Shown piece by piece: positions 708-18,193 of a DNA stretch of 18,193 nt. Within the stretch, counting starts at the first letter, position 1. Each line of letters opens with the position of its first letter. A program made the position numbers and the translations under genes. Below the pieces are notes generated by a model. It did no database searches. It saw nothing but the letters and a program-made list of their open reading frames with translations, and was not told where the DNA came from. Source of the stretch: Calditrichaceae bacterium (GTDB lineage Bacteria > Calditrichota > Calditrichia > Calditrichales > JBFXGD01). The DNA lies in assembly GCA_050173015.1 (NCBI GenBank), contig JBFXLE010000043.1, forward strand, positions 1-18,193, given 5' to 3'.

Positions 708-771
708 TTTTTATTCGTATTATTCCTCATAAAAAAATTTTGAATTATCTTAATAATCAAATTAAATCAAT

Positions 772-2703: not shown

Positions 2704-2822
2704 TCTCCCCAGTGCGGTCTATTTTGATAAGCAGTCGGATTTTCCATCAATTGCCCGAAAATATATTTTAATTGGCTTTAGCCTAATTTGGTTTCTCTTT
2801 ATCCCCTGATCTAAAGATAGGG

Positions 2823-2891
2823 CTATGACTCCCCATTAAACGCTTCCCGTAAAACCGCCTGCATCAATTGCTCTACCTGCACCCGGGAAGC
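2823..2891 (-). pseudogene. Short remnant resembling the C-terminus of a type I restriction-modification specificity subunit (HsdS)
   Basis: Manual translation gives ASRVQVEQLMQAVLREAFNGES*, resembling the conserved HsdS terminal helix (L.QAVL.EAF.G). It is only 22 aa and abuts the REP-like element upstream. Confidence 0.45.
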
Positions 2892-2897
2892 CCAATC

Positions 2898-3008
2898 CCG
2901 GAGGGATGAAATTTTTGTAGAAAAACAGACACCTCGCCATTCCGCGACCCCGTAGGGGTCGAACTATTACCGCGGAATTCCTCCGCTACAAAGATGTGAC
3001 ACCTCCGG
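2898..3008. repeat. REP/REPIN- or MITE-like nested palindromic element
   Basis: 23-bp imperfect terminal inverted repeats (2898-2920 CCGGAGGGATGAAATTTTTGTAG / 2986-3008 CTACAAAGATGTGACACCTCCGG, 18/23 matches). Internal perfect hairpin CGACCCC-GTA-GGGGTCG (2945-2961) and an additional IR ATTCCGCG (2939-2946) / CGCGGAAT (2971-2978). Confidence 0.65.
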
Positions 3009-3132
3009 CGCCGGCTTTATATTAAAGCAAATCACATTTACATAAAATTCAACTTTATCGGCATGAATATTTCTCTTTCCCGTGATTAATTGCTCTTGTC
3101 CCGTTACTTTTTAACCCGTCCCGTCAGCTTTT

Positions 3133-3472
3133 AGAGCTCCCCTCCGGAGTGTGACCTTCCCCTCCGCCGTTTTACCCCTTCCCTCCACAAAATCAAGGCT
3201 CCCCTCCGGAGGGTGACCTTCCCCTCCGCCGTTTTACCCCTTCCCTCCACAAAATCAAGGCTCCCCTCCGGAGGGTGACCTTCCCCTCCGCTGTTTTACC
3301 CCTTCCCTCCACAAAATCAGAGCTCCCCTCCGGAGTGTGACCTTCCCCTCCGCTGTTTTACCCCTTCCCTCCACAAAATCAAGGCTCCCCTCCGGAGGGT
3401 GACCTTCCCCTCCGCTGTTTTACCCCTTCCCTCCACAAAAACAGGGCTCCCCTCCGGAGAGTGACCTTCCCC
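3133..3472. repeat. 62-bp tandem repeat, about 5.5 near-identical copies
   Basis: Units start at 3133, 3195, 3257, 3319, 3381 and 3443 (partial). Consensus AAGGCTCCCCTCCGGAGGGTGACCTTCCCCTCCGCYGTTTTACCCCTTCCCTCCACAAAATC. There are no unique spacers. Confidence 0.95.
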
Positions 3473-3584
3473 GGCGCGTTATAACCCGTCACGGACCGAT
3501 TTTTACCGGAAATATTATTGTTTATTTAATTGATCAAAAACAAGTTGGATAAAGAGATGGGAAGAAATCCGTACCGCTGATAAA

Positions 3585-6275
3585 TTATTCCCCTACCTTT
3601 AGTATTTTTTTTATAAACCGCGCTAATTCGGACGGAGAAAAAGGTTTTTGTATAAAATTTGAATTTTCGGCCATCCGGTTCCCGTCTTCGTGATTGTCTA
3701 AATCCCGGTGTCCGGACATATAAATGACCGTGATACCGGGTCGGTCGGTTTTTATTTTTCGCGCCATCTCGGTACCGTACATTTTTGGCATCACAATATC
3801 CGTGAGGATTAAATCAATATCCCCCTGATGTTCCCTCGTGATTGCCAATCCATCGGTGCCGTCCGCGGCTTCGATCACATTGTAACCGTATGTCCGCAGA
3901 GTTTCTCCCACCAGTGTCCTGACGGCATCTTCATCTTCCACTACCAAAACGGTTTCACTGCCCGTTAAATCATTCTCATCAATGGCCGGGGATTCTTCAA
4001 CGACTAAAGTTCCGCTTTCAGCGGGAAAATAGATACTAAATGAAGTTCCTTTACCGGGCTCGGTCTCCACAAATATATGACCGTTACTTTGGCGAACGAT
4101 TCCGTAAACTGTTGACAACCCCAGGCCCGTTCCTTTGCTTTTATCTTTTGTACTAAAAAATGGCTCAAATATTTTTTCTTTTACCTTGCTGTCCATACCG
4201 ATACCCGAATCCGTTACCCGCATCATCACATATGGCCCGCTATCCATATCCGAAGCAGTCGTCCGGGTATTCTGATCAACGCAATGGTTCGCTGTTTCAA
4301 TAATTAATTCACCACCCTTTGGCATAGCGTCCCGGGCATTTACCGCCAGGTTCATAATGATCTGTTCAATTTGGGAAGGATCCGCCTTTATCGGTTTTAA
4401 TTCATCTTCTAAATTTGAAATGAGTTTCACATCCTCCCCGATCAGTCGATGAAGCATTTTCCCCATATCGCTGATCAAATTATTCAAATCAACAACCTTA
4501 GGCTGCAAAATCTGTCTGCGGCTAAAAGCGAGCAATTGCTGTGTCAGCGCCTGCGCCCTGTTGGCCGATTCTATAATGACTCTGAGATTATCAGATGAAT
4601 ACTCATCGTCTGATAAACGTCGAAGCAATAGTTCGCCATATCCAAGAATTACGGTAAGCATATTATTAAAATCATGGGCGACCCCACCCGCCAACTGACC
4701 GATGGCCTCCATTTTCTGGGACTGTCTCAACTGCTCTTCAAGCTGATTTCTTAAACTGATATCCAATCCCACGGCGAGTACGGCAAATGTATTTCCATTT
4801 TCATCCCTCATCAATGAATTTTGCCAGGATATCAATTTTTTTAGTCCTGATTTGCAGACGATCAGATTTTCATTCATTTTAAGACCGGTCGTTCCGTGAT
4901 AGAACTGATGATAGAATTTTATGAGATCTTCCCTGATTTCATCCGGAACGAATAAATCAAACCAGTTTTTACCCAATACATCTACCCTGGAGTAGCCTGT
5001 CAGATCGGCGGCGTATTTATTGAACTCAAGAATCGTTCCTTGTTCATCAAGCGTGATGATCAGTTCAGGGGCTGTTTGAATAATATTTTCATTAAATCTT
5101 TTTTCCTTCCTGAATTTCTCATCGGCATCTTTCATCCTTGTTATATCGATCCCCACCAGAACAGCCGCTTGATTCTGATTATATTTCTGCGCGACCATCA
5201 GCATATCCCGGTATCCGTCGTGTATGCTTGTTCTTACTTCTCTCGCAATCTGAACGGCGTTACTCCTAAAAAATTCTTTAACGAACCGGACAAAAACGGG
5301 ACTTTTACCCATAAAACCGACTTCTTTGCCGATAATTTCATCGGGGCGAATATTCAATCCTTCCCAAAGATATCGATTAACACCCAAATATTTTAAATCC
5401 GAACTGATCCAGGAAACACCCCCCGGAACCGCGTCTAATACGGCCTGTATCTGATCACGGGTATGCCTCAGATCCCGCTCCGCAATAACCCGGTCGGTTA
5501 CATCCTCCGCCAGACTCAAAATCCCGTCAGCGCCCCCGGGAAGCGGCACTTTGGTCTCATGCAATTCCATATAACAAACAGTGCCGTCATGCCTGATGCT
5601 CTTTTCCGAATGTTTCAGCAGTTCCCCGGATAACAGCCGCGCGATATTTTTTTCAACTAAATGCACCACATCCGGATGGGTGAGCATTTGTACTTTTTTC
5701 CCTACCAGCTCATCTCTGCTGTATCCAAGGGATTGGCAGACCGCCGGATTCGCGTCTATGATATACCCGTCTTTATCCTCCAGAAGAATGCCGCTCGGTG
5801 AAAGATCGAACAGGATATGATATCGTTCTTCTTTGTCACTCAGGAACTTCTCAGAAGCGTTTTTCAGCTTAAAAATATATCCGGTCAGCCTGTTTTCCGC
5901 GTTTCTGACCGGCAAAATTTTTACTCTTACTTCAGCACCCTTCCTGCCTTTTTTATCAAAACCGATATATACGGCTACTCCTTCCGGTAGTCCTGAAGTA
6001 TTGATATTTTCCAAATATCCGGTTAAGGAGGTTGATGAGTTCACCGCGGTTTTTAATCTCATAACCTTGTCCAGATGAAGACCGGTTAAATTTTCATCCG
6101 TCGATAGTATCATTTCTTTAGCGGCTTTGTTGATGAAATTAATCATACCGTATTCATCAGTCGTAATGACGGGATCTTCCAGCGTGTTCAACGCGTCAGC
6201 AAAGAAATCCATAGGCCTGTCCTGGCTCATATTCTTTTTTTTGATTTTCCGTAAATTTTCAATATTCTTTTTCAA
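3585..6275 (-). CDS. Cytoplasmic multi-PAS hybrid sensor histidine kinase/receiver (CckA-like architecture)
   Basis: About 4 PAS/PAC repeats, H-box QSQKMEAIGQLAGGVAHDFNNML, N-box NLAVNARDAM, G boxes DSGIGMD / FEPFFSTK / GTGLGL, and a C-terminal receiver (VVEDE, LILTD, QKPF). The TTG start at 6275 is uncertain; ATG at 6230 or 6212 are alternatives. Confidence 0.93.
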   Translation of the reverse strand: MKKNIENLRKIKKKNMSQDRPMDFFADALNTLEDPVITTDEYGMINFINKAAKEMILSTDENLTGLHLDKVMRLKTAVNSSTSLTGYLENINTSGLPEGVAVYIGFDKKGRKGAEVRVKILPVRNAENRLTGYIFKLKNASEKFLSDKEERYHILFDLSPSGILLEDKDGYIIDANPAVCQSLGYSRDELVGKKVQMLTHPDVVHLVEKNIARLLSGELLKHSEKSIRHDGTVCYMELHETKVPLPGGADGILSLAEDVTDRVIAERDLRHTRDQIQAVLDAVPGGVSWISSDLKYLGVNRYLWEGLNIRPDEIIGKEVGFMGKSPVFVRFVKEFFRSNAVQIAREVRTSIHDGYRDMLMVAQKYNQNQAAVLVGIDITRMKDADEKFRKEKRFNENIIQTAPELIITLDEQGTILEFNKYAADLTGYSRVDVLGKNWFDLFVPDEIREDLIKFYHQFYHGTTGLKMNENLIVCKSGLKKLISWQNSLMRDENGNTFAVLAVGLDISLRNQLEEQLRQSQKMEAIGQLAGGVAHDFNNMLTVILGYGELLLRRLSDDEYSSDNLRVIIESANRAQALTQQLLAFSRRQILQPKVVDLNNLISDMGKMLHRLIGEDVKLISNLEDELKPIKADPSQIEQIIMNLAVNARDAMPKGGELIIETANHCVDQNTRTTASDMDSGPYVMMRVTDSGIGMDSKVKEKIFEPFFSTKDKSKGTGLGLSTVYGIVRQSNGHIFVETEPGKGTSFSIYFPAESGTLVVEESPAIDENDLTGSETVLVVEDEDAVRTLVGETLRTYGYNVIEAADGTDGLAITREHQGDIDLILTDIVMPKMYGTEMARKIKTDRPGITVIYMSGHRDLDNHEDGNRMAENSNFIQKPFSPSELARFIKKILKVGE

Positions 6276-6557
6276 ATTAACATAATCCGATTCTTTTTGC
6301 CTATCAGATTAACATCAATGACCGAAAGATGGGTCTGAGTAAAAATCTCCTCAGCCAAACCGGCATATACATTCCTAACATATTAAAAGGTTAGATCACC
6401 AGAGAATATATGAATTTCAATCACCGGATACATAATCGATATCACAAAAAACAACTTTATTCTATGTCACACAAATCCCGGGGGAATCTTTTACGCGTTA
6501 AAAGATGAAAGATTTGCAGGTTACCTGTCGGGGATGGCAGGTCAATTAAATGAAACT

Positions 6558-9509
6558 TCAATGATCCAGGACGTCCCGGACTTTTTTGGCGAGCGCGTTG
6601 AATGAATAGGGTTTGTGAATAAAATTGATCCCTTTTTGCAGCACTCCGCTGCTAACAATCCGGTCATCCGTATAGCCCGAGGTGAATAACACTTTGATTT
6701 CCGGAATAATTTTCTTCAGGGCTTCCACCAGATCTTTGCCGCCCATTTCCGGCATAATCACATCGGTCATGATCAGATCAATTTTAATCTTCTTGCTTTT
6801 CACAAGTTTAAGGGCTTCCATGCCGTTGGATGCTTCAAGAATTTTGTATCCGAATGACTCAAGAGCAAAGCAGGCGATCTTTCTTACATCAAGATCATCT
6901 TCAACGACCAATACTGTTTCATTTCCCGTTCCCATTTCCCGTTCCTCTTCCTGTTCATATAACTGAATATCCTTTTCATCAGATTGCGGCCAGTAAATAT
7001 TGAATATGGATCCTACTCCCAGTTCTGTTTCAACAAAAATACATCCGTTATTCTGCTTTACGATTCCATAGACGGTCGCCAGACCCAAACCCGTGCCTCT
7101 CTCTTTTTCTTTTGTCGTAAAAAACGGCTCAAACATTTTTGCTTCCGTGTCCTTATCCATCCCTGTTCCATTATCTTTTACGGCCATTTTCACGTATGGT
7201 CCCAAATTACTCCCGATGTGAGCGGACACAAATTCTTCATCGAGATAAACCGGTTCGGTTTCGATGGTGATTTCTCTGAAAGATCCGTTTTTCGTTTTTT
7301 GGTTGATCGCGTCTCTTGCATTGATAACAAGATTTATAAGTATCTGCTCAATTTGAGCCGGATCGGCTTTAATCGGCTTTATCTGATCCGATAAATTGCT
7401 CTTCATCATTATATCTTCACCGATTAACCGATGAAGCATTTTTTCCAATTCCAAAATCACATGGTTGATATTGATAATGCGCGGTTCAATGATCTGTTTA
7501 CGGCTGAACGCGAGAAGCTGACGCGTGAGACTGCTTGATTTTTTTCCCGCCTTCATAATGCCGATAACTTTTCCGTAAAACGGATTGTCCGCTTCCATTT
7601 GGGTAATCATCAGCTCCGCATACCCGTTTATCGCCGTCATAATATTGTTGAAATCATGAGCGATGCTTCCGGTGAGCAATCCTATGGATTCCATTTTCTG
7701 TGACTGGAACAATTGCTGTTCAAGTTTCCGCTCGTTGGTGATATCTCTCTTTACGGCGGCATAGTTCATGGTTTTTCCGGTTGTGTTTTTTATGGGAAAA
7801 ATGACTGCTGTTTCATAAAAAACCGATCCGTCTTTCCGCTTATTGGCAAAAGTTCCTGTCCAGGTTTTATCAGCGATTAATGTATTCCATAAATTCTTAT
7901 AAAATTCGTCCGGGTGCTCTCCGCTTTTCAGGATACGCGGATTCTTCCCCATGACTTCCACAAATGAGTAACCCGTTACTTTTTCAAATGTCGGATTCAC
8001 ATATTCGATCTTACCGGTTATATCCGTGATAATAATCGATTCACTGGCCTGTTCAACAACGGATGCCAGTATTGATAGCTGTTCATCGACACGCCGGTCC
8101 TGAGTGATATCGCTTAAGATGGTCATAATACCCGAAATTTCACCGTTATTATCTCGAAGAGGCGCTGTGGAAACACGGATATCCAGAATTGTCCCGTCTT
8201 TTTTTCTTCTTTTTACCTCTAACCCGGAAATGGATTCTCCGGACATCACTCTTTGACGCAGCGCCACAAATTTTGGATCATCGGGATCCTGTCCCAGTGG
8301 ATTTTTTTTCCCGATCACTTCAGATTCCGTCCAGCCGAATATCCGTTCGGCGGCCGGATTCCATCGCCGGACATAACCGGATGAATCGATCGAAATGATC
8401 GCCAGTGGGGACGCGTCGAACAGTGCGTTCAGCGTCTGATTTGTTTCCTTTAATTTTGATTCAGTGATCTTTGTGAAAGTGATATTACGGGCAATTCCCT
8501 GTGTCCCTTTAAATCCTCTTTTTTCAGGATTTCTCGTCGTGTACAGTCCTTCCGCGTTGAGCAGAAAAACAGGATCAGGTCTCGGAAGCATTCGCTCCTT
8601 TTCCCCGCATCTTGAGAATAAGCGGACTTCAAAATCCTTTGTGCTTCTTTCGCCTGTACGTCGCTCTTTCACATGATAGAATGCCTTTTCCCGGTCATCC
8701 GGATGAACGAGCTCAAGAATACTCTTGCCAATCAGGTCATTTGAATCGTATCCGCAATATTTGACCGCATCATTGATAAAAATAATATTCCCTTCATGAT
8801 CCAGCCGGTAAATGATATCGGGTGTATTTTTAATGATGGCGTCAAGCATCTGTTTTGTGTTTTTTAATTCTGACTCCAACTCTTTTCTTATTGTAATGTC
8901 GTGAAAAATAGCGGAAAAAGTGGTCGGTCCCTGAGGAAGAACAGTGATGCTAAAATGTTTTCTTAAGTTAAATAAATAAGTTTCAAAATATGCCGGGGTT
9001 CCTGTCTCGGTAACCTCGGCATATTTTTCGACATAAGGGGCGTGTCCCAGTTTATACAGATTGGAGGCGGGTATTCCGATTATATCTTCTTTTCTTTGCC
9101 CAAAAACAGACTCATAGGCGGGATTGGTATCGATAACCGCGTAATCGATCGCTTTACCCGATTCGTCAACGATCAGTTCATAAAATGCCGCGCTGTCCGT
9201 GATCCGGTTGAACAGCAGCTCAAAATCCGCCCCGCTGCTCACCGTCTCTAAATCATTTTTCTTTTTACTTTTACTAACCGACCTGTAAATACGGGACAGA
9301 TCGGAGAGTTCCTTTGAGATATCGCATCCCGAGCCGGATTTTTCCAATTTTTCATACAGGGCTTTTAGCCCTGTCCCGGCTTTTTCGAGAATCCGGCTCA
9401 TGGAATTGTTTTCTTTTCTGAGCCGGTCAATTACCGAATTGGCTTCATCAAAGGTTTTTGGTGTAAAATCCATTTTGCCATAAGCCATGGAGCCCGCCTT
9501 CTTGGTCAT
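6558..9509 (-). CDS. Cytoplasmic multi-PAS hybrid sensor histidine kinase/receiver
   Basis: 4 PAS domains, H-box QSQKMESIGLLTGSIAHDFNNIM, HATPase motifs (NARDA, DNGTGMD, GTGLGL) and a receiver (VVEDD, IMTDVIMP, HKPYS). No transmembrane segment seen. The start could be ATG 9488. Confidence 0.93.
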   Translation of the reverse strand: MTKKAGSMAYGKMDFTPKTFDEANSVIDRLRKENNSMSRILEKAGTGLKALYEKLEKSGSGCDISKELSDLSRIYRSVSKSKKKNDLETVSSGADFELLFNRITDSAAFYELIVDESGKAIDYAVIDTNPAYESVFGQRKEDIIGIPASNLYKLGHAPYVEKYAEVTETGTPAYFETYLFNLRKHFSITVLPQGPTTFSAIFHDITIRKELESELKNTKQMLDAIIKNTPDIIYRLDHEGNIIFINDAVKYCGYDSNDLIGKSILELVHPDDREKAFYHVKERRTGERSTKDFEVRLFSRCGEKERMLPRPDPVFLLNAEGLYTTRNPEKRGFKGTQGIARNITFTKITESKLKETNQTLNALFDASPLAIISIDSSGYVRRWNPAAERIFGWTESEVIGKKNPLGQDPDDPKFVALRQRVMSGESISGLEVKRRKKDGTILDIRVSTAPLRDNNGEISGIMTILSDITQDRRVDEQLSILASVVEQASESIIITDITGKIEYVNPTFEKVTGYSFVEVMGKNPRILKSGEHPDEFYKNLWNTLIADKTWTGTFANKRKDGSVFYETAVIFPIKNTTGKTMNYAAVKRDITNERKLEQQLFQSQKMESIGLLTGSIAHDFNNIMTAINGYAELMITQMEADNPFYGKVIGIMKAGKKSSSLTRQLLAFSRKQIIEPRIININHVILELEKMLHRLIGEDIMMKSNLSDQIKPIKADPAQIEQILINLVINARDAINQKTKNGSFREITIETEPVYLDEEFVSAHIGSNLGPYVKMAVKDNGTGMDKDTEAKMFEPFFTTKEKERGTGLGLATVYGIVKQNNGCIFVETELGVGSIFNIYWPQSDEKDIQLYEQEEEREMGTGNETVLVVEDDLDVRKIACFALESFGYKILEASNGMEALKLVKSKKIKIDLIMTDVIMPEMGGKDLVEALKKIIPEIKVLFTSGYTDDRIVSSGVLQKGINFIHKPYSFNALAKKVRDVLDH

Positions 9510-9602
9510 TTAGATCTGTTCAGCAATCTCAGTGATTTAAATCGTCCTTCTGCGATGTGAACTCTTCAGTAATTTATCATCCGTTTAAATATCGCTTTAC
9601 TC

Positions 9603-9986
9603 TCAGACCGCGATCGAAGCGGGCTGTCCGATATTCAGCAGTTGATTAACCTTGTCTTTGAGGGCCGGTACATAAAACGGTTTTTCAAAGAAACGGTCCT
9701 TGAGTATATACTTCGCCTGCATGGCAAGATCTGATTCCGGGAAAGCCGTAATGGCGATAAAGGGAATCTCTTTTTCGCTTTTTTTGACCAGATCCATTAA
9801 CTGAATACCGTCGCCTCGAGTCAAAAACAGATCAGCCAGCACAAGATCAAAGTTAAAGGCGCGGAAAGCGCTGACGGCTTCATGAAAGTCCGTGGCGTAA
9901 ACAACTTCATATCCCTCGTCTTCGAGTTCAAACCTTAGCGCCTGACGAATGGACCGTTCATCTTCAACAATTAAAATTTTAATCAT
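9603..9986 (-). CDS. Single-domain response regulator (receiver only)
   Basis: 127 aa with ILIVEDE, phospho-acceptor LVLAD, AITA and EKPF motifs. AGGAG RBS at 9992-9996. Confidence 0.92.
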   Translation of the reverse strand: MIKILIVEDERSIRQALRFELEDEGYEVVYATDFHEAVSAFRAFNFDLVLADLFLTRGDGIQLMDLVKKSEKEIPFIAITAFPESDLAMQAKYILKDRFFEKPFYVPALKDKVNQLLNIGQPASIAV

Positions 9987-10016
9987 GTCAACTCCTATGT
10001 TTTTATTAATAAATAA

Positions 10017-10032
10017 TACAATTATCGTACCA
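10017..10032 (-). promoter_or_regulatory. Putative sigma54 (-24/-12) promoter for the single-domain response regulator unit
   Basis: Minus strand TGGTACGATAATTGTA versus the consensus TGGCACG-N4-TTGCW: correct GG-N10 spacing with two mismatches, about 30 bp upstream of the ATG. Confidence 0.65.
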
Positions 10033-10035
10033 AAT

Positions 10036-10048
10036 TAAAAATTTGATT
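10036..10048 (-). promoter_or_regulatory. Putative IHF-binding site between the enhancer array and the sigma54 promoter
   Basis: Minus strand AATCAAATTTTTA is an exact match to WATCAANNNNTTR. The AT-rich context raises the chance of a random match. Confidence 0.4.
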
Positions 10049-10141
10049 GATTTTTTAAATATAATACGCGTTTAATGCTTGGTTTTTAATAACTTACAAG
10101 GAGAGTTAATCTGATTGGATAGAATTTGAAGAAAAATCCGC

Positions 10142-10204
10142 ATATGAAGGATCGTTCACATTATATGAAGGATCGTTCATATTATATGAAGGATCGTTCA
10201 TATT
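10142..10204. promoter_or_regulatory. Triple 21-bp palindromic array, putative enhancer (UAS) for a sigma54 activator, copy 1
   Basis: ATATGAAGGATCGTTCAYATT x3 (10142, 10163, 10184). The 20-bp core ATATGAAGGATCGTTCATAT is 18/20 self-complementary. It lies 110-173 bp upstream of the -24 element, and the same motif occurs at 16566-16628. Confidence 0.7.
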
Positions 10205-11604
10205 CTTTTTATTTTGAGACGTCTGATTTTTATGCTCAGCCATTCCCGGCTCATGCCTGCTTTATTAGCCGCGTCACCTAAATTCCAGAAGGTTTTCTGT
10301 AAAATATTCATAAAATACTGTTTTTCGAACTTTTCAACCGCCTCGCTGTGGCTAAGATCCAATAATTCCGTATCGACGGCTTTACCCTTTTCAGATGAAG
10401 CGGATTCCTGCATCGGTTTTGTCAGTTGCCTTAATGAAATGTTATGCGGGCCGATCACCTGTCCTTCGCAGAAAACAAAGGCATCTTCGATGATATTTCG
10501 AAGCTCCCTGACATTTCCGGGAAATTCATATGCTTCGAGCATCAGAAGCGCTTCTTCCGAAAATTTTAGTTTTTTTCTTCTTTCGTTGTTGAATTTTTCA
10601 AGGAAAAACCGGGCCAGAAGCCGAATATCCTGTTTTCTTTCCCTAAGCGGGGCAATAGTTATCTTTGTCACGTTAAGCCGGAAATATAAATCTTCTCTGA
10701 ACTTCCCGGCCTCGACCAATTTTGCCAGATCCTGATTGGTGGCCGAGAGGATCATTACATTCACATCGATGGGATTTTTTCCGCCGATTCTGTAAAAACT
10801 ACGCTCTTCAAGAACTCTCAGTAAACGCACCTGTAACGGAAGCGGTAACTCGCCTATTTCATCAAGAAAAATGATCCCTTCCCCCGCGAGTTCAAATTTC
10901 CCCTGTTTCGATGTATAGGCTCCGGTAAATGAGCCCTTTTCATGGCCAAACAATTCGCTTTCAATTAAGTTTTCCGGAATGGCGGCGCAGTTGACGGGAA
11001 CAAACGGGGCGTTCTTTCTGACACTGTTAGCGTGTATGGTCCGGGCTATCAATTCCTTGCCCGTTCCGCTTTCTCCGTGAATAAGGCAGGTGACAGTGGC
11101 GTCACCGGCGACTTTCTGCAGACGCTTGACCACCTCGGTCATCTGCTTTGATTTACCGATGATGTTGTAGTCGCTGTACTGTTTTTGGATGGTTTCTTTA
11201 AGAATCTGATTTTCCGTCGAAAGCTGCGTTATTTGAATTTTTTTTTTAAGCATGCTTTCAATCCGGTAGCCAAGTTCCGCGAGACCAAATCCTTTTGGAA
11301 TAAAATCATCGGCGCCGGCTTTCATTGCCTTTACGGCGTTATCAACCGTGTCAAACGCGGTCATGGCGAGAATAACCGGATTATACCACTGGGATCTTGC
11401 TTCGCGCATCACCGAAATACCGTCTTCAATATCCGGCATCATTAAATCGGAAACCACGAGATCAATTTCGTGCGCCGCGAGAATCTTGAAGGCTTCCTCC
11501 CGGTTCGACGCCGTATAAACCTCATATTCCGGATTTTCCTGAAGATTGAACTCAATTCCTTTGAGCATAGAAACTTCATCATCCGCGATAAGTATGCGAT
11601 ACAT
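10198..11604 (-). CDS. Sigma54-dependent NtrC/AtoC-family response regulator (receiver-AAA+-HTH)
   Basis: Receiver (ILIADDE, VVSDLMMP), Walker A GESGTGKE, ESELFGHEKGSFTGA loop, Walker B FLDEIGE, FREDLYFRL, PGNVREL and a Fis-type HTH at the C-terminus. Confidence 0.96.
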   Translation of the reverse strand: MYRILIADDEVSMLKGIEFNLQENPEYEVYTASNREEAFKILAAHEIDLVVSDLMMPDIEDGISVMREARSQWYNPVILAMTAFDTVDNAVKAMKAGADDFIPKGFGLAELGYRIESMLKKKIQITQLSTENQILKETIQKQYSDYNIIGKSKQMTEVVKRLQKVAGDATVTCLIHGESGTGKELIARTIHANSVRKNAPFVPVNCAAIPENLIESELFGHEKGSFTGAYTSKQGKFELAGEGIIFLDEIGELPLPLQVRLLRVLEERSFYRIGGKNPIDVNVMILSATNQDLAKLVEAGKFREDLYFRLNVTKITIAPLRERKQDIRLLARFFLEKFNNERRKKLKFSEEALLMLEAYEFPGNVRELRNIIEDAFVFCEGQVIGPHNISLRQLTKPMQESASSEKGKAVDTELLDLSHSEAVEKFEKQYFMNILQKTFWNLGDAANKAGMSREWLSIKIRRLKIKRI

Positions 11605-11689
11605 GTGTCTATTTCCTGTTTAAAAATTCAATGGTATAAAATATAAAAATTGATCATTAAAATCCCAAAAATCTTTAATAATCACTTCA

Positions 11690-11878
11690 CTCAACTCTTT
11701 TCCCTTAACGCTCATTAATTCTTACTTCTTACTTCCTACTTTTCACTTAGGGCACGAGCATCGTGCCCCTACTTTCCCCTCTTCTCTTTTTTCTTTTATC
11801 TTTTATCTTTTTTCTTCAAATTCCCGGACAAGATCTTAATTCCTACTTCTTACTTCTTACTTCTTACTTCCTACTTCC
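11690..11878. repeat. Heptamer-repeat element (TTCTTAC/TTCCTAC) containing a GTAG-type REP hairpin
   Basis: Tandem heptamers at about 11719-11739 and 11839-11876. Hairpin GGGCACGA-GCA-TCGTGCCC followed by CTAC (11750-11772), i.e. GTAG plus stem on the minus strand. 11799-11825 is the exact reverse complement of 17448-17474. Confidence 0.75.
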
Positions 11879-11880
11879 TC

Positions 11881-13302
11881 TCATCCCGGGTACTTTGGCA
11901 GACTGATGGTAAAAGCCGAGCCTTCGCCTGTCTTGCTCTCCACATCAATTTTGCCGCGGTGGGCGATAACCGCTTTTTTCACCATCGCCAGACCCAGCCC
12001 GTGCCCTTCATTTTTCATCGAAAAGAACGGACGGAAAATGGTGGCGAGCCGGTCTTCAGGAATACCAACCCCCGTATCGGATACCGTAATTTTCACATCA
12101 TCTTCCACCGAGGTGAGAATCGTAATTTGCCCCTTCCCGGAGATAGCTTCAGCGGCGTTGGTCAACAGATTTTTCAGGGCCATCAGCAGCATCTGGTAAT
12201 CCCCCGGAATCTCGGGAACTTTTTTGCTGAATTTTTTAACCACCGGAATCGATTTGAGATGGACCTCATCCAGCGCGTGTTCTATGAGTTCATTTATGCG
12301 TATGGGTTCGACTTTCAGCTGGGTTGAACGCGCGATATCAAGCGTTCGTTTTGTAAAATCTTCCAGCTTTTGAGAAGCCAGCAGAATTTCGGTCGAGTAT
12401 TTTTTTAACGGGCTGTCATCTGTGAGTTTGCGATGCAGACCATCGGCCAGAAGATGAATTCCGCTCAACGGATTCTTCAGATCATGGATAATATAAGAAC
12501 TGAACTCCCCGATCATGATCAAATTTTCATTGGCGATGCGTTCATCAATCAGTGTTTTTAATTCATGCGATAATTTATTTAACGATTGAACAAGATCTCC
12601 TATTTCGTCGGTTCGCTCGATTTCCAGATTGGCCTCGAGGTTACCCTTTCCGTACTCACTTGCCAGGTCAACGACATCGCGGATTGGCTGAGATATGGAT
12701 CGGGCGAAGGAGTAGGACAGGAACAGACTGATCAGTATGGCCGCGATACCGATTCCGATAATCGTGCCAAGCAGACCTTTGTAAGTATCTTCAACCGAAT
12801 ATTTGATACGCGCCGTTCCGACGCGTTTATTCAGTTCAAATATCGGCACGGCGGTATCCCAGATTTCCGAACCGTCATCGCCGGTTTCACTCTGCAATAA
12901 AAATGTATCCGTGGCAAGCGCGCGGTCGGTCAGCGGGTCGCTGTATTTGCGTCCCCGAAGTTCCGGAGTATTGGAAGCGATCACTTTTCCCGTGGTGTCG
13001 AGCAGCGCGATGGAGGTGATGTCCGGGCCGTCGCTCATGCTGTCGATAAGAATCTGCAACGTGATATAATCATCCAGCAATATGGCGTTCAGGCTGGAAT
13101 ACGCCAGCGTGCGCGTCAGGCTAAAGGCTTTCTCCTGAGCCTGTCTGAGCAGCGTCTGTTTCTGGAAATAGAAGACAGCCGCCGAGACGATACACACCAC
13201 CAGTATCACCAGGCCGCTGAAATAGACAAAGAATTTGCCCTGCAGATTCAATCGAGATTTTTTGCCAAACATGTTTGATCTGTTTTTTACGATATTTGTC
13301 AT
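11881..13302 (-). CDS. Membrane-bound sensor histidine kinase (TM-extracytoplasmic Cache-like-TM-HAMP-HisKA-HATPase)
   Basis: Two hydrophobic segments, HAMP (ISQPIRDV...DEIGDL), H-box IIHDLKNPLSGI, NLLTNAAEA, DTGVGI and GHGLGL. It starts 7 nt after the binding-protein stop and is the likely cognate kinase of the downstream NtrC-type regulator. Confidence 0.94.
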   Translation of the reverse strand: MTNIVKNRSNMFGKKSRLNLQGKFFVYFSGLVILVVCIVSAAVFYFQKQTLLRQAQEKAFSLTRTLAYSSLNAILLDDYITLQILIDSMSDGPDITSIALLDTTGKVIASNTPELRGRKYSDPLTDRALATDTFLLQSETGDDGSEIWDTAVPIFELNKRVGTARIKYSVEDTYKGLLGTIIGIGIAAILISLFLSYSFARSISQPIRDVVDLASEYGKGNLEANLEIERTDEIGDLVQSLNKLSHELKTLIDERIANENLIMIGEFSSYIIHDLKNPLSGIHLLADGLHRKLTDDSPLKKYSTEILLASQKLEDFTKRTLDIARSTQLKVEPIRINELIEHALDEVHLKSIPVVKKFSKKVPEIPGDYQMLLMALKNLLTNAAEAISGKGQITILTSVEDDVKITVSDTGVGIPEDRLATIFRPFFSMKNEGHGLGLAMVKKAVIAHRGKIDVESKTGEGSAFTISLPKYPG

Positions 13303-13309
13303 TAAAATA

Positions 13310-14806
13310 TCAGTTATTCAACTCAATCTTATGATATTGAATAATGCCGTATGGATTAACCGGCAACGTTTTGATTTTCTCGCGATTATATGCAAAATGC
13401 GGTTTGACGTGATACAAAAAAACCGCCGGTGTATCTTCTAAAATTTGTTCCGTGATTTTTTTATACAGCTCCTGACGCCGTTCAGGATCGGATTCCAGCC
13501 TGGCCTGATCGAGCCACGCGTCAACCCGCGCATTTTGGTAGTGTAAGGTATTAAATTCTGACTTTGAATGAAAGAAGGAACGCAAAAAACTTTCCGCGTC
13601 ACCGATAACAGAGCTTTTTCCACCATCAATAAAAAGCTGCGCGCTATCGCTCATAACAGCATTTATATGTTCTTCCCAAGTATCGAACATCGTCACTTCA
13701 AGGCTTATTCCAATTTTAGCAAGATCAGATTTAATCATTTCAACAATTGTCTCTCGCACAAAACCAACTTTTGGAAAATATAGTTTTAATTTTAAACCAT
13801 TTGGATACCCCGCCTTAGCTAACAAAATTCTGGCTTCTCTAATATTAAATGACTCTTGAAAAATTCCATTATAATCTAAGTAAACTGGAGGCAAAGGTCC
13901 TTTCGCAACTATTGCATTTCCTCTATTCACATTTAGAACTAATCTAGGTATATTAATCGCTTTTAAAACTGCCTGTCGTAGATATAAATTATCCACAACC
14001 TTATTTTGATTGTTAAAGCCTAAATAAAAAACACTTACGGGTTTCTGAACTAAATAATCTACTTTCCCTTGCCATTTTAATCTATCAATAGACAAACCTG
14101 ATACCATATAGAGAATATCTACATCATTTGTTAAGATTGATTTTTCTCTATTAAATTTATCTGAGTAATATTTAAAATTTATACTTTTAATCTTTGACTC
14201 CCCTTTTCCCCAATACAAATCAAACAGCTTCAATTCTACCTTAATTCCCTCATCAAAACTGGAAATTTTATAAGGACCGGTACCTGTTGGATGAAATGAT
14301 AAATTATTGGCTTGGTTCTCAATGGCCTTTTTTGAAATAATTACAAAACCTATTGGACTTGTTAGTTCATAAAGAAAAGTTGAGTTAGATTGCTTTAGAT
14401 TTATCTTAAAGCTCATAGAATCTAAAATTGTTATTTCTTCTATAAGATCAAATAAAGAGGATTTTGGATTTTTTAAGTTAAACCAATCAAATGAAGATTT
14501 GACATCATCTGTATGCAAGGTGGAACCATCATGAAAGACAATGTTTTCTCTTAAATAAAATGTATATTCCTTATTATTTTCAGAGATTTTCCAATATTTA
14601 ACAAGATGAGGATGAACTGTAGAATTATCTTCGTCAATCGTTACAAGAGGTTCATAGATTTGTGAATAAATCATTAACTCATCGACTCCAAAGTTCTCAG
14701 ATGGGTCCAATCCTTTTGGAAAATACTTAATAGCTTGGGTCACTGAAGGCTCATTACAACTTCCTAAAATGAATATTAATGTTAAAATAATAAAAATGTT
14801 TTTCAT
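13310..14806 (-). CDS. ABC-type peptide/nickel substrate-binding lipoprotein (SBP family 5, OppA/DppA-like), orphan
   Basis: Motifs LDP...IYEPLV, YTFYLRENIVFHDG..L...DVK.S, GTGPYK and LRQAV. Start revised from GTG 14851 (inside a hairpin) to ATG 14806, which gives the signal peptide MKNIFIILTLIFILGS-C with a lipobox. No permease or ATPase genes in the window. Confidence 0.9.
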   Translation of the reverse strand: MKNIFIILTLIFILGSCNEPSVTQAIKYFPKGLDPSENFGVDELMIYSQIYEPLVTIDEDNSTVHPHLVKYWKISENNKEYTFYLRENIVFHDGSTLHTDDVKSSFDWFNLKNPKSSLFDLIEEITILDSMSFKINLKQSNSTFLYELTSPIGFVIISKKAIENQANNLSFHPTGTGPYKISSFDEGIKVELKLFDLYWGKGESKIKSINFKYYSDKFNREKSILTNDVDILYMVSGLSIDRLKWQGKVDYLVQKPVSVFYLGFNNQNKVVDNLYLRQAVLKAINIPRLVLNVNRGNAIVAKGPLPPVYLDYNGIFQESFNIREARILLAKAGYPNGLKLKLYFPKVGFVRETIVEMIKSDLAKIGISLEVTMFDTWEEHINAVMSDSAQLFIDGGKSSVIGDAESFLRSFFHSKSEFNTLHYQNARVDAWLDQARLESDPERRQELYKKITEQILEDTPAVFLYHVKPHFAYNREKIKTLPVNPYGIIQYHKIELNN

Positions 14807-14842
14807 CTCTTCTAAATTTGTTTTTACAGAACAGAATTTAGA

Positions 14843-14876
14843 TCTCTGCACTCTCTCTAAATAGAAAGTGCAGAGA
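14843..14876 (-). terminator. Stem-loop immediately after the peptide gene (leaky terminator or mRNA-stabilising hairpin)
   Basis: 14-bp stem (TCTCTGCACTCTCT / AGAAAGTGCAGAGA, one G.U pair on the minus strand) with a 6-nt loop, 10 nt after the peptide stop. The U-tract is weak. Confidence 0.65.
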
Positions 14877-14886
14877 GTCTATTAAT

Positions 14887-15006
14887 TTAGTTAATACTTT
14901 CACCACAAGCTCTTAGAATAATTCCCATATTTGCCACAAAAAATGAACTTAATAAAAATTTAACCGGTGCAAATTTCTTTACATTCTTACGCATTTTCTT
15001 TAACAT
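14887..15006 (-). CDS. Unannotated 39-aa peptide, candidate precursor/signal peptide: MLKKMRKNVKKFAPVKFLLSSFFVANMGIILRACGESIN
   Basis: GGAGGG RBS at 15014-15019, 7 nt before ATG 15006, and TAA at 14887-14889. It fills the gap between the radical SAM and SBP genes in the same orientation and is followed by a hairpin. Basic N-terminus, hydrophobic middle, single Cys near the C-terminus. Confidence 0.8.
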   Translation of the reverse strand: MLKKMRKNVKKFAPVKFLLSSFFVANMGIILRACGESIN

Positions 15007-15064
15007 TTTCAATCCCTCCGATTAATAAATGAATGATTTTTTAAAAATAAATTCTATCTTTCGC

Positions 15065-16459
15065 TTACTTCATACTGGTCAGCATTGCTTTTAGCGGTTT
15101 TAAACGCCAGATCAACGACTTAATAAATATCCCCGGTTTTAACATCACCCTGAATAAATTCTCTTCCACATTGAGCATCTTCAGCCGCGCCGCTGTCCAG
15201 AAGCGCAGTCTAAAATCATAGCCCGTCAGATAATTGTCTTTGGTGAGTAATCCCCGGGCCTTATAATCACGGTACACCCTGCTGCCGGGATAAATCTCCA
15301 GTTTTTTGTTCACTGAAATCTGGCAGTTGCGGCTGTTGAAATAACGCTGTTTTAATTCAAAAATGATCATAAACTGTGTCAGCAAATCCCATAAAGAGGT
15401 GTGGGCGTCCGCCAGGATCACCGACGCGATTACATCGATTTTTAACCGGTACAGGGTGATCACCGCTTTTAGATTCTGTCGTACCGAGATCTTTTTGTTA
15501 AACCGATTGAGCTGTCTGACATCAAAGGATTCCAGTCCCATAAATACCCGCTGCAGACCGACGGACTTCAGGCGCGTCATCACTTTTTTGCTGACGGTAT
15601 CCGCCCGGCACATCAATTCAAATCGTACATCGAGATTTCTTTGTTCTATTTCAGAGGCGAATTCATCTACGATTTCAAAGGCCTTGTTTCCTTTTACCAG
15701 AAACTGATCATCGTTAAAGATAAAATAATCGGTTCCAAATTCCGCCTTTAACTGTTCCATCTCATCCACCAGGCTTTTGGCGGAACGGCGGCGCCATACT
15801 TTGCCGGGACTTGTTCCATAGAGACCGATAATATCACAAAAAGAGCACTGCCCCCAGCATCCCCGTGTTCCGTAAACGCGCAGATGTTTGTCATGTTTTA
15901 GTACTTCACGGGCGTATTTGCGATCAACCGCCGGCAGTATATCCAGATCATGAATCAAAGGACGGGCCGGATTTTCGATGATCTCACCTTTTTCCCGATA
16001 CGAAAGCCCCTGAATATCAGAATACCCGGCGCCGGTCTTATTGAGTTCGTATTCCATCAGCTCCGCCAGCGTCAGTTCGCCTTCACCGCGAACCGCGAAA
16101 TCGATTTCAGGAAAATCACGCAGAATATCGGCCGAGTTAAATGTCGCGAAGTATCCGCCGATGACGATCTTTCCTTTGTACCCCGCTTTTTTCAGCCCTT
16201 TTGCCAGCGTGAATCCCTTTTTCTTCGAATCATCCAGCAGCGACAAGCCGATCATTTTGGGATTGATTTCAAGCAGACGTTCCAGAGCGCTTTGAACCGG
16301 AAGCGCTTCTACAGCCATATCCAGCGTATCCGCCTTAAATCCTTCCGAACAGACAAACGATTTCAGACTGGCGATTCCAAGATGCTCAGTGACCTGCTCA
16401 AATCTTGAATCCCCCGGATTGACTAAAATTATATCCATATCGCTCCTGTAAGCTTTCAT
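15065..16459 (-). CDS. Cobalamin (B12)-binding radical SAM enzyme (class B methyltransferase-like)
   Basis: N-terminal B12-binding domain (ILVNP, EHLGIASL, IVIGGYFAT, RGEGE), CxxxCxxC motif TRGCWGQCSFC, FNDDQF and GLES. Start revised to ATG 16459 (AAAGGA RBS) or 16438 (AGGAG), because the track's TTG at 16501 overlaps the sigma54 promoter. Confidence 0.92.
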   Translation of the reverse strand: MKAYRSDMDIILVNPGDSRFEQVTEHLGIASLKSFVCSEGFKADTLDMAVEALPVQSALERLLEINPKMIGLSLLDDSKKKGFTLAKGLKKAGYKGKIVIGGYFATFNSADILRDFPEIDFAVRGEGELTLAELMEYELNKTGAGYSDIQGLSYREKGEIIENPARPLIHDLDILPAVDRKYAREVLKHDKHLRVYGTRGCWGQCSFCDIIGLYGTSPGKVWRRRSAKSLVDEMEQLKAEFGTDYFIFNDDQFLVKGNKAFEIVDEFASEIEQRNLDVRFELMCRADTVSKKVMTRLKSVGLQRVFMGLESFDVRQLNRFNKKISVRQNLKAVITLYRLKIDVIASVILADAHTSLWDLLTQFMIIFELKQRYFNSRNCQISVNKKLEIYPGSRVYRDYKARGLLTKDNYLTGYDFRLRFWTAARLKMLNVEENLFRVMLKPGIFIKSLIWRLKPLKAMLTSMK

Positions 16460-16484
16460 TTCAATTCCTTTCTGCATATTGTAC

Positions 16485-16500
16485 TTCCAAAATCGTGCCA
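16485..16500 (-). promoter_or_regulatory. Putative sigma54 (-24/-12) promoter for the radical SAM-peptide unit
   Basis: Minus strand TGGCACGATTTTGGAA: perfect -24 box TGGCACG and GG-N10-GA with a divergent -12. The predicted transcription start is just upstream of the RBS of ATG 16459. Confidence 0.65.
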
Positions 16501-16565
16501 AAAATAAAATAGTGAGCTATTGTCTTGTTATTATTGCATTTATACAAAAACAGCATTTTTGCCCG

Positions 16566-16628
16566 ATATGAAGGATCGTTCATATTATGTGAACGATCCT
16601 TCATATTATGTGAACGATCCTTCATATT
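16566..16628. promoter_or_regulatory. Triple 21-bp palindromic array, putative enhancer (UAS), copy 2
   Basis: ATATGAAGGATCGTTCATATT (16566), then ATGTGAACGATCCTTCATATT x2 (16587, 16608), which are the inverted form of the unit at 10142. It lies 67-129 bp upstream of the -24 element. Confidence 0.7.
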
Positions 16629-16771
16629 GATCTTAAAAAATGTCAAGTCTTGTATATAAATTCTAGGGAGGAAAAGAGATAAATTAAAAGAATTTTAAAA
16701 ATTTATTATAATTGTTACCGAATATCGGAGACATGTTAAAAATTTGAACTGTTTTTGAGCCTGGAGAAAAC

Positions 16772-16808
16772 AAAAAAAGGCTTACGGAATTTTCCCGTAA
16801 GCCTTTTT
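16772..16808 (-). terminator. Intrinsic terminator after tRNA-Thr (bidirectional shape)
   Basis: A7-GGCTTACGG-loop-CCGTAAGCC-T5: a 9-bp stem with A/T tracts on both sides. Confidence 0.85.
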
Positions 16809-16816
16809 CTTACCCG

Positions 16817-16889
<73 letters not shown>

Positions 16890-16926
16890 GGTTATTTTAA
16901 AATATTATGTTGTTGAAAAGGCGTCT

Positions 16927-16955
16927 AATTTAATGGAAATTGCGCTTCAACGCAA
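16927..16955 (-). promoter_or_regulatory. Putative sigma70 promoter for tRNA-Thr
   Basis: Minus strand TTGCGT-N17-TAAATT, followed by a GC-containing discriminator (AGACGCC). Confidence 0.5.
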
Positions 16956-16970
16956 TAATCCTTCCATTTT

Positions 16971-17315
16971 TTATCGGAACGGACCTTCTATGGTGATTTT
17001 GTTTCCCGTGCAAAGATCACACTGACATATTTTTCTGAGATAATCGTAAGTGTAAATTCCTGTTTTGTGATTGTCGGAAAACTTGAAACTGATGGCGTAG
17101 CGGCCGATCATTTCCCACTCACTCAGCACGACATTTCCCGGATTAGTCTTCATAACATACAGGGGATTATCTGTCTTTTTTGCCCGCTCCTCTTCACAAA
17201 CCGCGCAAGGACAATTTTTGCGCAAATCTTTCGCGAAATATACACTTTCGTGACCGTCACTCCATTCGATGGTCAACGCCTCATCACTGATCTGATCGAT
17301 CGAAACCGGATGCAT
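16971..17315 (-). CDS. DUF971 / gamma-butyrobetaine hydroxylase-like N-terminal domain protein
   Basis: 114 aa with the motifs IEWSDGH.S.Y, LR.NCPCA.C and IGRYAI.F.FSDNH.TGIY.YDYLR. AGGAG RBS upstream. Confidence 0.85.
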   Translation of the reverse strand: MHPVSIDQISDEALTIEWSDGHESVYFAKDLRKNCPCAVCEEERAKKTDNPLYVMKTNPGNVVLSEWEMIGRYAISFKFSDNHKTGIYTYDYLRKICQCDLCTGNKITIEGPFR

Positions 17316-17376
17316 CCTGAACTCTCCTTATTTTTCGCTAAATTACATTATTATTTTGAATCAATCAAATGGATTA

Positions 17377-17518
17377 TAAGAAGTGGGAAGTAAGAAGTAG
17401 GAATTAAGAAGTAAGAAGTAAGAAGTAGGAAGTAAGAAGTAGGAATTGGGAATTTGAAGAAAAAAGATAAAAGAAAAAAGAAAAGATGGAAAAGTTAAGA
17501 GTTAAAAGTAGGGGCGTT
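17377..17518. repeat. Heptamer-repeat element (TAAGAAG/TAGGAAG family), copy 2
   Basis: 11 tandem heptamers at 17377-17453, then purine-rich AAAAGAT/AAAAGAA units ending in GTAGGGGCGTT. It is inverted relative to the copy at 11690-11878. Confidence 0.8.
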
Positions 17519-17713
17519 TCAAGTCGGGCATGCGATGTCATAGTCAACCGCGGTGAAACCGGTTAATCTACCCGTATGTCATGCCGCCGGCATCTTTGGC
17601 TACCTTGGAAAGATGTAGAAAAAAAGATTCTTCGGGGCGAATTTTCTGTTCGAGTGTAATAATATGAAAAATGGATAAATGATACACGAGTTAAAATTCG
17701 CCAGGGCTTTTTG

Positions 17714-17739
17714 CTACTTTTTGGCCATTCAAAAAGTAG
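17714..17739. repeat. Perfect 10-bp hairpin ending in GTAG
   Basis: CTACTTTTTG-GCCATT-CAAAAAGTAG. Confidence 0.5.
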
Positions 17740-17751
17740 GGAGAAGAAGAA

Positions 17752-17860
17752 AAGTGGGAAGTAAGAAGTAGGAAGTTAAGATAAAAGAAAAAAGATAAAA
17801 GAAAAAAGAGAAGATAGAAAAGTTAAGCGTTAAGAGAAAAGAGTTAAGATTAGGGGCGTT
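17752..17860. repeat. Heptamer-repeat element, copy 3
   Basis: TGGGAAG TAAGAAG TAGGAAG followed by AAAAGAT/AAAAGAA units and AGCGTTAAGAGAAAAGAGTT (near-identical to the reverse complement of about 11693-11712), ending in TAGGGGCGTT. Confidence 0.7.
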
Positions 17861-18193
17861 CCTGTTCGGGCGCCAGGGTAGCGTCAACCGGACCGACACG
17901 ATGACCTGCGGACTGACATGTGGGAGTCAGGAAAATTTTTCCAAATCAGTCCCATAGCCCCCGGATGTCATGCAGGAGGCATCTTATTCCTATTCGGGAT
18001 AAGTGTCTTCTCAAATACAAATGATTACAGGTGATTCTTCCTGGGTAAACACTGACCCTCCCCTCGATCCCCTCCCTTATGCCAGGCTGTTGCAGATTAT
18101 TGTTGAGGGGATAGTTCATATTACGTAAATTTATTGCCATAAACTGAGTCATACTTTTAAGGATTTTTATGGGATTTATATCAAGCGACCGTT

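Follow-up and report, generated by a model that had tools for sequence, protein, structure and literature searches.

A candidate autoinducing peptide circuit with a replaceable peptide and binding-protein cassette in the Calditrichota

A gene cluster in an 18,193-nucleotide stretch of a Calditrichaceae bacterium genome (GenBank assembly GCA_050173015.1, contig JBFXLE010000043.1, positions 1 to 18,193; hereafter the window) encodes a cobalamin (B12)-binding radical S-adenosylmethionine (SAM) enzyme, a 39-residue peptide, a solute-binding protein (SBP) of the lipoprotein type, a membrane histidine kinase and a sigma54 activator. Our new result is that, judged from sequence comparison, the tail of the peptide and the body of the SBP form one replaceable cassette. 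Their joint replacement provides new support, at the level of populations, for a link between peptide and SBP. We put the probability that the cluster is an autoinducing modified-peptide circuit with pheromone-type-like specificity alleles at roughly one half. The organisms that carry it are known only from metagenome assemblies, and among the sequencing runs listed as containing the window none is recorded as RNA.

The peptide-SBP cassette

The limits of the cassette are seen in comparisons of the window with closely related records. In a congeneric genome, identity to the window is 84-97% along the enzyme, the kinase and the last ~100 codons of the SBP gene, and 46-70% from ~14996 to 13603. 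Identity of the metagenome contig L141 to the window is 98-100% from 17392 across the enzyme gene and the first part of the peptide gene, falls to 50-70% over the cassette block 14996-13603 and is back to 93% at 13602. A Logan contig of 5007 nt from study X2 matches 11852-13603 and 14956-16870 at ~99%, with 41 differences in all; in it 1339 unrelated letters replace 1352 letters of the window. In contigs from two further studies, X5 and X6, the match ends at 14956 and 13606 and the records continue. The cassette of the window is without cover in runs X5, X6 and X7 and is bridged only by the X2 contig. The enzyme, the leader of the peptide, the C-terminal part of the SBP and the kinase all lie outside the cassette, with identities of 89-99% for the enzyme and 95% for the kinase.

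Peptide and SBP alleles of the cassette segregate together, against the flanks. The L141 SBP is 59% identical to that of the congener and 49% identical to that of the window, and its peptide tail is also nearer to the congener's, while its flanks are window-like. For the three alleles available as sequence, peptide tail and SBP give concordant allele trees that are at odds with the flanks; on these three alleles, there are thus allelic groups in which candidate signal and receptor co-vary. Among 10 genomes, the SBP has also diverged further than any other component in each of the 45 orthologue pairs. A second congeneric pair deviates in the same direction, with 54-71% identity in the SBP body and 72-79% in the flanks, without a sharp block. 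Against L141 the window has a second low-identity, gap-rich stretch at 17400-17850, upstream of a GBBH-like gene; this difference is an indel or replacement of its own and has nothing to do with the cassette.

Components, gene order and operators of the cluster

The cluster genes all lie on the minus strand, as given by the list of open reading frames (ORFs) and by Pfam searches (Table 1). An earlier note on this DNA had read the order radical SAM enzyme, peptide, hairpin, SBP, kinase and activator from the letters alone, and both the gene set and the order were borne out by the ORFs and their Pfam domains.

Table 1 Coordinates of the cluster and its regulatory elements in the window
Feature	Coordinates	Strand	Description
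Upstream activator site 1	16566..16625	.	three 14-bp palindromes of the TGAAGGATCGTTCA type, 21-bp spacing, ~95 nt upstream of promoter 1
sigma54-type -24/-12 promoter 1	16485..16500	-	TGGCAC, then a -12 element with GA for the usual GC
B12-binding radical SAM enzyme, candidate peptide maturase	15065..16459	-	ORF open from 16501; likely start ATG 16459
39-codon precursor-like ORF	14887..15006	-	basic N-terminus, hydrophobic middle, Gly/Pro break, semi-conserved C-terminal nonamer
Replaceable cassette, putatively specificity-determining	13604..14955	.	peptide codons 18-39, intergenic hairpin, SBP residues 1 to ~416
Hairpin directly 3' of the peptide stop codon	14839..14881	-	dG -25 kcal/mol, without a T-run
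Orphan SBP_bac_5 lipoprotein, candidate signal receptor	13310..14806	-	listed ORF from GTG 14851, inside the hairpin
Membrane histidine kinase	11881..13302	-	transmembrane segment, sCache_3_2, transmembrane segment, HAMP, HisKA, HATPase_c; start 7 nt past the SBP stop
Kinase-activator gap, 276 nt	11605..11880	.	purine-rich heptad repeat and GC hairpin; lineage-specific intergenic repeat
NtrC-type sigma54 activator	10198..11604	-	REC, AAA+ (Sigma54_activat) with GSFTGA loop, HTH_8
Upstream activator site 2	10144..10203	.	same three palindromes, overlapping the activator's stop codon
sigma54-type -24/-12 promoter 2	10017..10032	-	TGGTAC-N5-TTGTA, 31 nt upstream of the regulator ATG
Single-domain CheY-type response regulator	9603..9986	-	first gene of the output operon
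PAS-rich hybrid histidine kinase, 3' of the CheY-type regulator	6558..9509	-	

The ORF of the candidate precursor is preceded by GGAGGG 8 nt upstream. That a conserved small ORF lies between enzyme and SBP, as the note had supposed, was put to the test and held: the ORF is present at 22 loci (23 sequences), each time with a Shine-Dalgarno sequence, and encodes 39 residues in 21 cases, 40 in one and 36 in one. A profile search of 1.84 billion representative proteins returned 27 cluster representatives, 23 of them exactly 39 amino acids long. A cluster look-up of four relatives gave only the name 'hypothetical protein', the window's own copy is absent from a collection of 15 billion proteins, and NCBIfam has no match for the peptide and no equivalog for any component of the cluster. 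We also applied a property filter (length, basic start, hydrophobic middle, ribosome-binding site), written after the family had been seen; the 33 loci yielded 25 hits, every one of them at the expected position and none outside it. A chance ORF was considered and rejected, as the filter hits lie solely at that position.

Five or six of the first 11 residues of the peptides are Lys/Arg, and Phe17 is nearly invariant; a hydrophobic stretch and a Gly/Pro break near residues 24-26 follow. The C-terminal nonamer has a recurring Asn, an Arg/Lys, a small residue and an Ile/Leu, ends in Glu, Asn, Asp or Ser, and in several family members is directly preceded by small-x-small motifs. Residues 1-17 are conserved and lie outside the cassette, the tail is variable, and Pfam detects no RRE/PqqD-like domain in the enzyme. 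Strong hairpins occur at the position after the peptide gene in 8 of the 23 loci folded, with differing sequences; such a hairpin is possibly an attenuator or a stabiliser. Enzyme and peptide ORF are adjacent or close in 21 of the 22 loci with the ORF, and in one genome the pair occurs twice in tandem (L029, G030, 3958-7529). The first peptide copy of this tandem has 36 residues and lacks the usual C-terminal end; there are no palindromes upstream of the first enzyme copy and one hit between the pairs. Because runs of N occupy the places where the peptide gene or a second copy is expected in L055 (G082; past the enzyme), L032 (G025; 886-1101) and L159 (~11000-11080), the peptide counts for these genomes are lower bounds.

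The enzyme matches PF02310 (7e-15, 55 bits) and PF04055 (1.6e-12, 48 bits), both above cut-offs, and the cysteines of its CxxxCxxC motif (C215, C219 and C222) are invariant in 20 orthologues. An N-terminal B12-binding domain followed by a CxxxCxxC radical SAM core places it in class B, the cobalamin-binding radical SAM enzymes. None of the characterised B12-radical SAM subfamilies in NCBIfam fits (BchE, HpnJ/R, ApyD, TIGR03975, which is a C-methylase of peptides made on ribosomes and modified after translation (RiPPs), and others): of 22 matches, all far short of their cut-offs, the best scores 127 bits where the cut-off is 481. As no equivalog cut-off is reached, the chemistry of the enzyme is not assignable. 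A protein atlas likewise returned only generic B12/radical SAM clusters. The nearest solved structures are OxsB (E 3.5e-14) and TokK (3.9e-05). These two enzymes and the peptide/protein C-methylases of the same class share the B12-binding domain and the CxxxCxxC radical SAM core with the enzyme; the sequence relation of OxsB and TokK to it is only distant.

The SBP matches PF00496 (2e-67, 228 bits), and its likely start at 14806 is followed by a lipobox-like L-G-S-C. Its predicted structure has a mean confidence (pLDDT) of 90, and Foldseek aligns it with 5u4o and YliB at TM-scores of 0.86-0.87, with DppA next. The SBP gene directly precedes the kinase gene in the window and in orthologous loci, and no linked ABC permease or ATPase accompanies it; Pfam finds no permease domain among the ten window proteins scanned. 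SBP and kinase genes adjoin in 15 of 15 loci in which both are readable, including three with the enzyme elsewhere. The kinase, 7 nt downstream in the window, carries its sCache_3_2 domain between two hydrophobic segments, the layout expected of a periplasmic sensor domain. A complex prediction with SBP residues 33-513 and the 39-residue peptide, run with alignments, scored 0.02, below the mark, and is neutral on binding. Matches to the SBP in two genomes and to the enzyme in one come only in two or three adjoining pieces (L056, G046; L059, G041; L060, G044). These piecewise matches suggest frameshifts or decay, with signal-blind or signal-negative variants as one possibility and assembly errors as another.

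An orthologue of the enzyme (50-90% identity) is present in 24 of 86 Calditrichota genomes and in 16 of 55 genera; phylum-level and class-level searches covered the same 86 genomes. Among loci from 21 other genomes, 12 run from enzyme to SBP to kinase, most of them on to activator and CheY-type regulator, in some cases followed by the hybrid kinase. The conservation of gene order that had been predicted is thus present at these 12 loci. At 2 more, enzyme and SBP extend to the contig end, and 5 are truncated, the contig stopping at or after the enzyme. The unit is divided in three genomes: two congeners have enzyme, regulator, peptide and regulator at one locus and SBP, kinase and activator at another, and one complete genome has peptide, SBP and kinase 80 kb from the enzyme, with runs of N adjoining both loci. 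On the strength of these three genomes, SBP-kinase(-activator) is one module and enzyme-peptide another, and the peptide gene may stand with either. Outside the Calditrichota, the best relatives of the enzyme among the matches listed are ~25-34% identical. We examined 88 loci among the matches listed, 80 from a contig scan with an enzyme alignment and 8 of 14 from another search, and the SBP-kinase-activator neighbourhood is absent from all 85 distant ones (25-34% identity). The matches listed by the contig scan reflect generic B12-radical SAM patterns, with 3 of the known orthologues among them, and they set no bound on the taxonomic range of the cluster.

The activator has the features of an NtrC-type enhancer-binding protein: the domains, the GSFTGA loop, -24/-12 promoters, upstream sites and an rpoN (sigma54) gene in the same genome (200 bits). 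Its candidate operator, the palindrome, has 9 matches on the two strands of the window where 0.03 are expected, and 0 of 200 shuffles reached 9. The claim that the same triple palindrome and a -24/-12 promoter stand both at the head of the cluster and before the CheY-type regulator was confirmed. A scan for TGAAC-N4-GTTCA with up to 2 mismatches, within 400 nt upstream of the enzyme gene, found 2-4 phased sites (21-23 nt) in 18 of 21 loci. Three loci are exceptions: one offers just 121 nt of upstream sequence, one is the first copy in the duplication genome, and one belongs to a genome whose operators differ. Other parts of the loci have scattered hits, ~1 per 1.5-2 kb, and a few close pairs (for example at the activator end in G004). 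GGCAC-N5-TTAGC/TTGC elements lie downstream of the phased sites in orthologous loci, and 3' of the activator gene there are at least 2 sites in 4 of 9 loci and at least 1 in 6 of 9. The genome with divergent operators has GTAAC-type sites at both promoters, and its activator alone has a changed recognition helix; the remaining activators keep an R-E-W-L-S-K-K-like motif. This covariation of operator and recognition helix, a single event, is suggestive support for the wiring of activator to palindromes. The feedback proposed in the note is thus favoured in part, by the phased sites at 18 of 21 loci and by the covariation in one genome.

The window's genome contains four phased palindrome sets in total. 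Two lie elsewhere, at C37:608-667 (G000, L009) and C16:13295-13331 (G000, L164), each with a minus-strand TGGCAC-N5-ATGC element ~80 nt away. The former stands before a lipoprotein gene cut by the contig end. The latter is followed by genes for a secreted protein (416 aa), a lipoprotein (143 aa) and a small protein that ends in a type IX secretion tail; the genes at both sites lack an informative Pfam family. Both loci are probable extra members of the regulon, judging by these elements.

The cluster genes are co-oriented, as the note has it; a single transcript through the activator is no more than a possibility, given a repeat and a hairpin in the 276-nt gap before the activator gene. At 11800-11986 the summed contig word depth is 474-1178 in 3 of 4 runs examined, and neighbouring genes in the same runs have a depth of only ~3-10. 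Because its word depth is far above that of these genes, the gap repeat is taken as a member of a widespread repeat family, and it may partly terminate transcription within the cluster. On the same strand, 3' of the CheY-type regulator (3585-9509), lie two large hybrid histidine kinases rich in PAS domains, of 983 and 896 aa. The one next to the regulator is probably part of the output operon, since the order regulator then hybrid kinase recurs in 4 other genomes. On this gene order, the output of the circuit would seem to be another phosphorelay and not a set of enzymes. Immediately upstream of the cluster the same strand carries a tRNA-Thr (CGT) gene at 16816-16889 and a strong terminator at 16810-16772, which insulates the sigma54 promoter of the cluster from read-through.

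The proposed circuit and its alternatives

From the observed anatomy, conservation, operator-promoter architecture and cassette polymorphism we infer modification and export of the peptide, its diffusibility and its binding, and contact between SBP and kinase. The cobalamin-type radical SAM enzyme would act in the cytoplasm on the 39-residue precursor and would recognise its conserved basic N-terminal part, residues 1-17. The signal-peptide-like N-terminal half would route the peptide to or across the inner membrane, where a C-terminal fragment of ~9-16 residues would be released and bound by the orphan OppA/DppA-type lipoprotein. The periplasmic sCache domain of the kinase would then read the loaded SBP, via the conserved part of the SBP, and the kinase would phosphorylate the NtrC-type activator, which would bind the tandem GTGAAC-N4-GTTCAC-type sites. 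Together with sigma54, the activator would switch on the signal operon, closing a positive feedback loop, and also the CheY/hybrid-kinase operon and at least 2 further loci. Specificity would reside in the peptide tail and the SBP body, which would be exchanged together between near-identical strains to give pheromone-type-like groups. Of the circuit as it was proposed in the earlier note, the gene order, the small ORF and the operator architecture stand, and the cassette now adds support for a link between peptide and SBP. A bolder version of this proposal, which we advance only tentatively, is that the cluster is the first diderm, non-Firmicute peptide-pheromone quorum-sensing system with true pheromone types, in which a cobalamin-radical-SAM-modified, Sec-routed peptide is read by an orphan OppA-type lipoprotein, the exchangeable subunit that lends specificity to a sigma54 two-component switch, and strains of one Calditrichota species fall into mutually deaf groups.

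Several observations weigh against an autoinducing circuit. A partial Mantel test of tail against SBP gives a weak correlation (r 0.26, p ~0.04, 10 genomes), and tail against enzyme does nearly as well (r 0.22, p 0.07). Only three alleles have been read as sequence, and adjacency alone would let two genes hitch-hike in one recombination event. The C-terminal nonamer, from which the signal would derive, is semi-conserved across the family and not hypervariable, and the N-terminal half is more like a Sec signal peptide or membrane anchor than like the leader of a usual RiPP. Pfam and NCBIfam find no RRE/PqqD-like domain in the cluster proteins and no exporter or leader peptidase in the cluster. 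The SBP fold takes peptides, nickel, opines, sugars and glutathione; three genomes match SBP or enzyme only in pieces; the -12 element of promoter 1 is imperfect, with GA for the usual GC; and a repeat with a hairpin separates kinase and activator.

Three other explanations were weighed. In the nisin system a lipoprotein confers immunity and a two-component system senses the peptide. By analogy, the peptide could be a self-induced, bacteriocin-like antimicrobial modified by the radical SAM enzyme and the SBP lipoprotein mainly a sequestering immunity protein, perhaps also presenting the peptide to the kinase, so that the cassette would record diversification of toxin and immunity and not communication. 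The same pairing of peptide and SBP specificity would then be expected, an autoregulatory promoter is present and the binding protein is a lipoprotein. We regard this explanation as unlikely: the SBP gene always stands directly before the kinase gene and stays with it even when the enzyme is elsewhere, which fits a part of the sensor better, no locus contains an ABC immunity or export transporter, and the fragment released would be very short. An explanation that dispenses with export altogether makes the 39-residue product a small protein tethered in the inner membrane, N-terminus inside, whose short periplasmic tail docks on SBP or kinase, as a permanent subunit or a regulator for feedback, in the style of MgrB and PhoQ. 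The true input would be an external SBP ligand, and the enzyme would modify the small protein or be a co-regulated output. The layout of the peptide, in which a basic N-terminus leads into ~14-20 hydrophobic residues and then ~13 tail residues, would suit such a protein, as would the fixed length of 39 residues, the lack of an exporter or peptidase gene in Pfam searches and the one genome in which the peptide gene lies with SBP and kinase, away from the enzyme. This topology, too, has a low probability in our view, since the enzyme-peptide pair duplicates and moves as a unit, the classic small-x-small motifs before the nonamer in several members suggest cleavage, and a private, non-diffusible partner offers no obvious reason for alleles to diversify.

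A further alternative is an ordinary nutrient or metal sensor. The SBP would signal the presence of an environmental ligand, such as oligopeptides, nickel or an opine, to the kinase, enzyme and peptide would be one of the outputs, and the SBP would vary because phages or predators act on it as an exposed lipoprotein, with the peptide tail as a hitch-hiker. SBP-dependent nutrient kinases are common, as far as the available text of PMC8050422 describes them, the SBP family is promiscuous in ligand class, and the SBP's rank as the fastest-evolving gene in all 45 pairs would follow directly. Such a sensor appears quite improbable in the face of four observations: three data sets place the left edge of the cassette at codon 17/18, within the peptide gene; tail and SBP share an allele tree that conflicts with the flanks; the sensor, to judge from the operators, would induce its own operon headed by enzyme and peptide at 18 of 21 loci; and a conserved peptide would be left without a role.

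Relation to known systems

Strain-specific peptide pheromone types are textbook biology of Gram-positive bacteria. To our knowledge, peptide pheromones with pheromone types are almost unknown in diderm bacteria, and we know of nothing on cell-cell signalling in Calditrichota. The earlier note knew of no described system with this combination of parts, and our full-text literature search found none; supplementary files were outside its scope.

The closest parallels in logic lie in the Gram-positive systems. In agrBDCA of staphylococci, the precursor is likewise encoded beside its maturase, with a histidine kinase and a regulator under a self-induced promoter, a hypervariable block over the signal and part of the receptor likewise defines specificity groups, and the N-terminal part of the precursor targets the membrane. 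The present cluster differs in that its candidate maturase is a cytoplasmic B12-radical SAM enzyme, its variable receptor is a separate SBP lipoprotein and not the kinase, its regulator is a sigma54 activator and its host belongs to a diderm phylum. In comQXPA of Bacillus subtilis, conserved flanks enclose a pheromone-type polymorphism that takes in the modifying enzyme, the peptide and the receptor's sensing part, whereas here the enzyme lies outside the variable block (89-99% identical), and chemistry, receptor type and regulator differ. Pfam and NCBIfam detect no homology to AgrB/AgrD or ComQ/ComX in the six cluster products.

The sensing arm has its counterparts among SBP-dependent kinases. 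LuxP-LuxQ, CBP-ChiS, TorT-TorS and ChvE-VirA are such pairs (PMC8050422; PMC12704726), in which, as far as these sources are available, a periplasmic SBP encoded beside the kinase is its ligand-sensing subunit, as proposed here; CBP, moreover, is also an SBP_bac_5 protein. Their known ligands, in the available text of PMC8050422, are small molecules or sugars from outside the cell, and no case listed there involves a ligand that the operon itself encodes or an SBP cassette that occurs as alleles. Orphan OppA-family lipoproteins dedicated to one signalling peptide are represented by PrgZ and TraC of enterococcal plasmids. These, like the Opp-dependent Phr, SHP and PapR systems, feed a permease for import to a cytoplasmic receptor, whereas in the cluster there is no linked permease and the partner would be a membrane kinase. 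Phr-type signals leave the cell via a Sec-type signal sequence.

Ranthipeptides are radical SAM-modified peptides tied to quorum sensing. The same holds for streptide and other RaS-RiPPs (PMC9389541; PMC13361665), which likewise pair a radical SAM enzyme with a short precursor, in their case in a locus linked to cell density. As described in the available parts of these papers, the streptococcal modified peptide is the output of a separate SHP/Rgg signal, the enzymes are SPASM-type and not B12-type, and there is no sensing arm of SBP, kinase and sigma54 activator.

If the proposed circuit is correct, a cassette logic of signal plus receptor would have evolved independently and from quite different parts, the maturase being a B12-radical SAM enzyme, the specificity subunit an SBP and the output one of sigma54. 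A branch of the cobalamin radical SAM enzymes that is unassigned would gain a peptide substrate, and a family of 39-residue genes mostly missed by annotation would gain a function. The natural alleles would supply cognate and non-cognate pairs for a clean binding experiment, and the parts would offer synthetic biology a compact, orthogonal switch from peptide to sigma54. By analogy, the circuit would work like agr and com while sharing no homologous part with them, and would join the principle of the SBP-dependent kinase to a self-encoded peptide.

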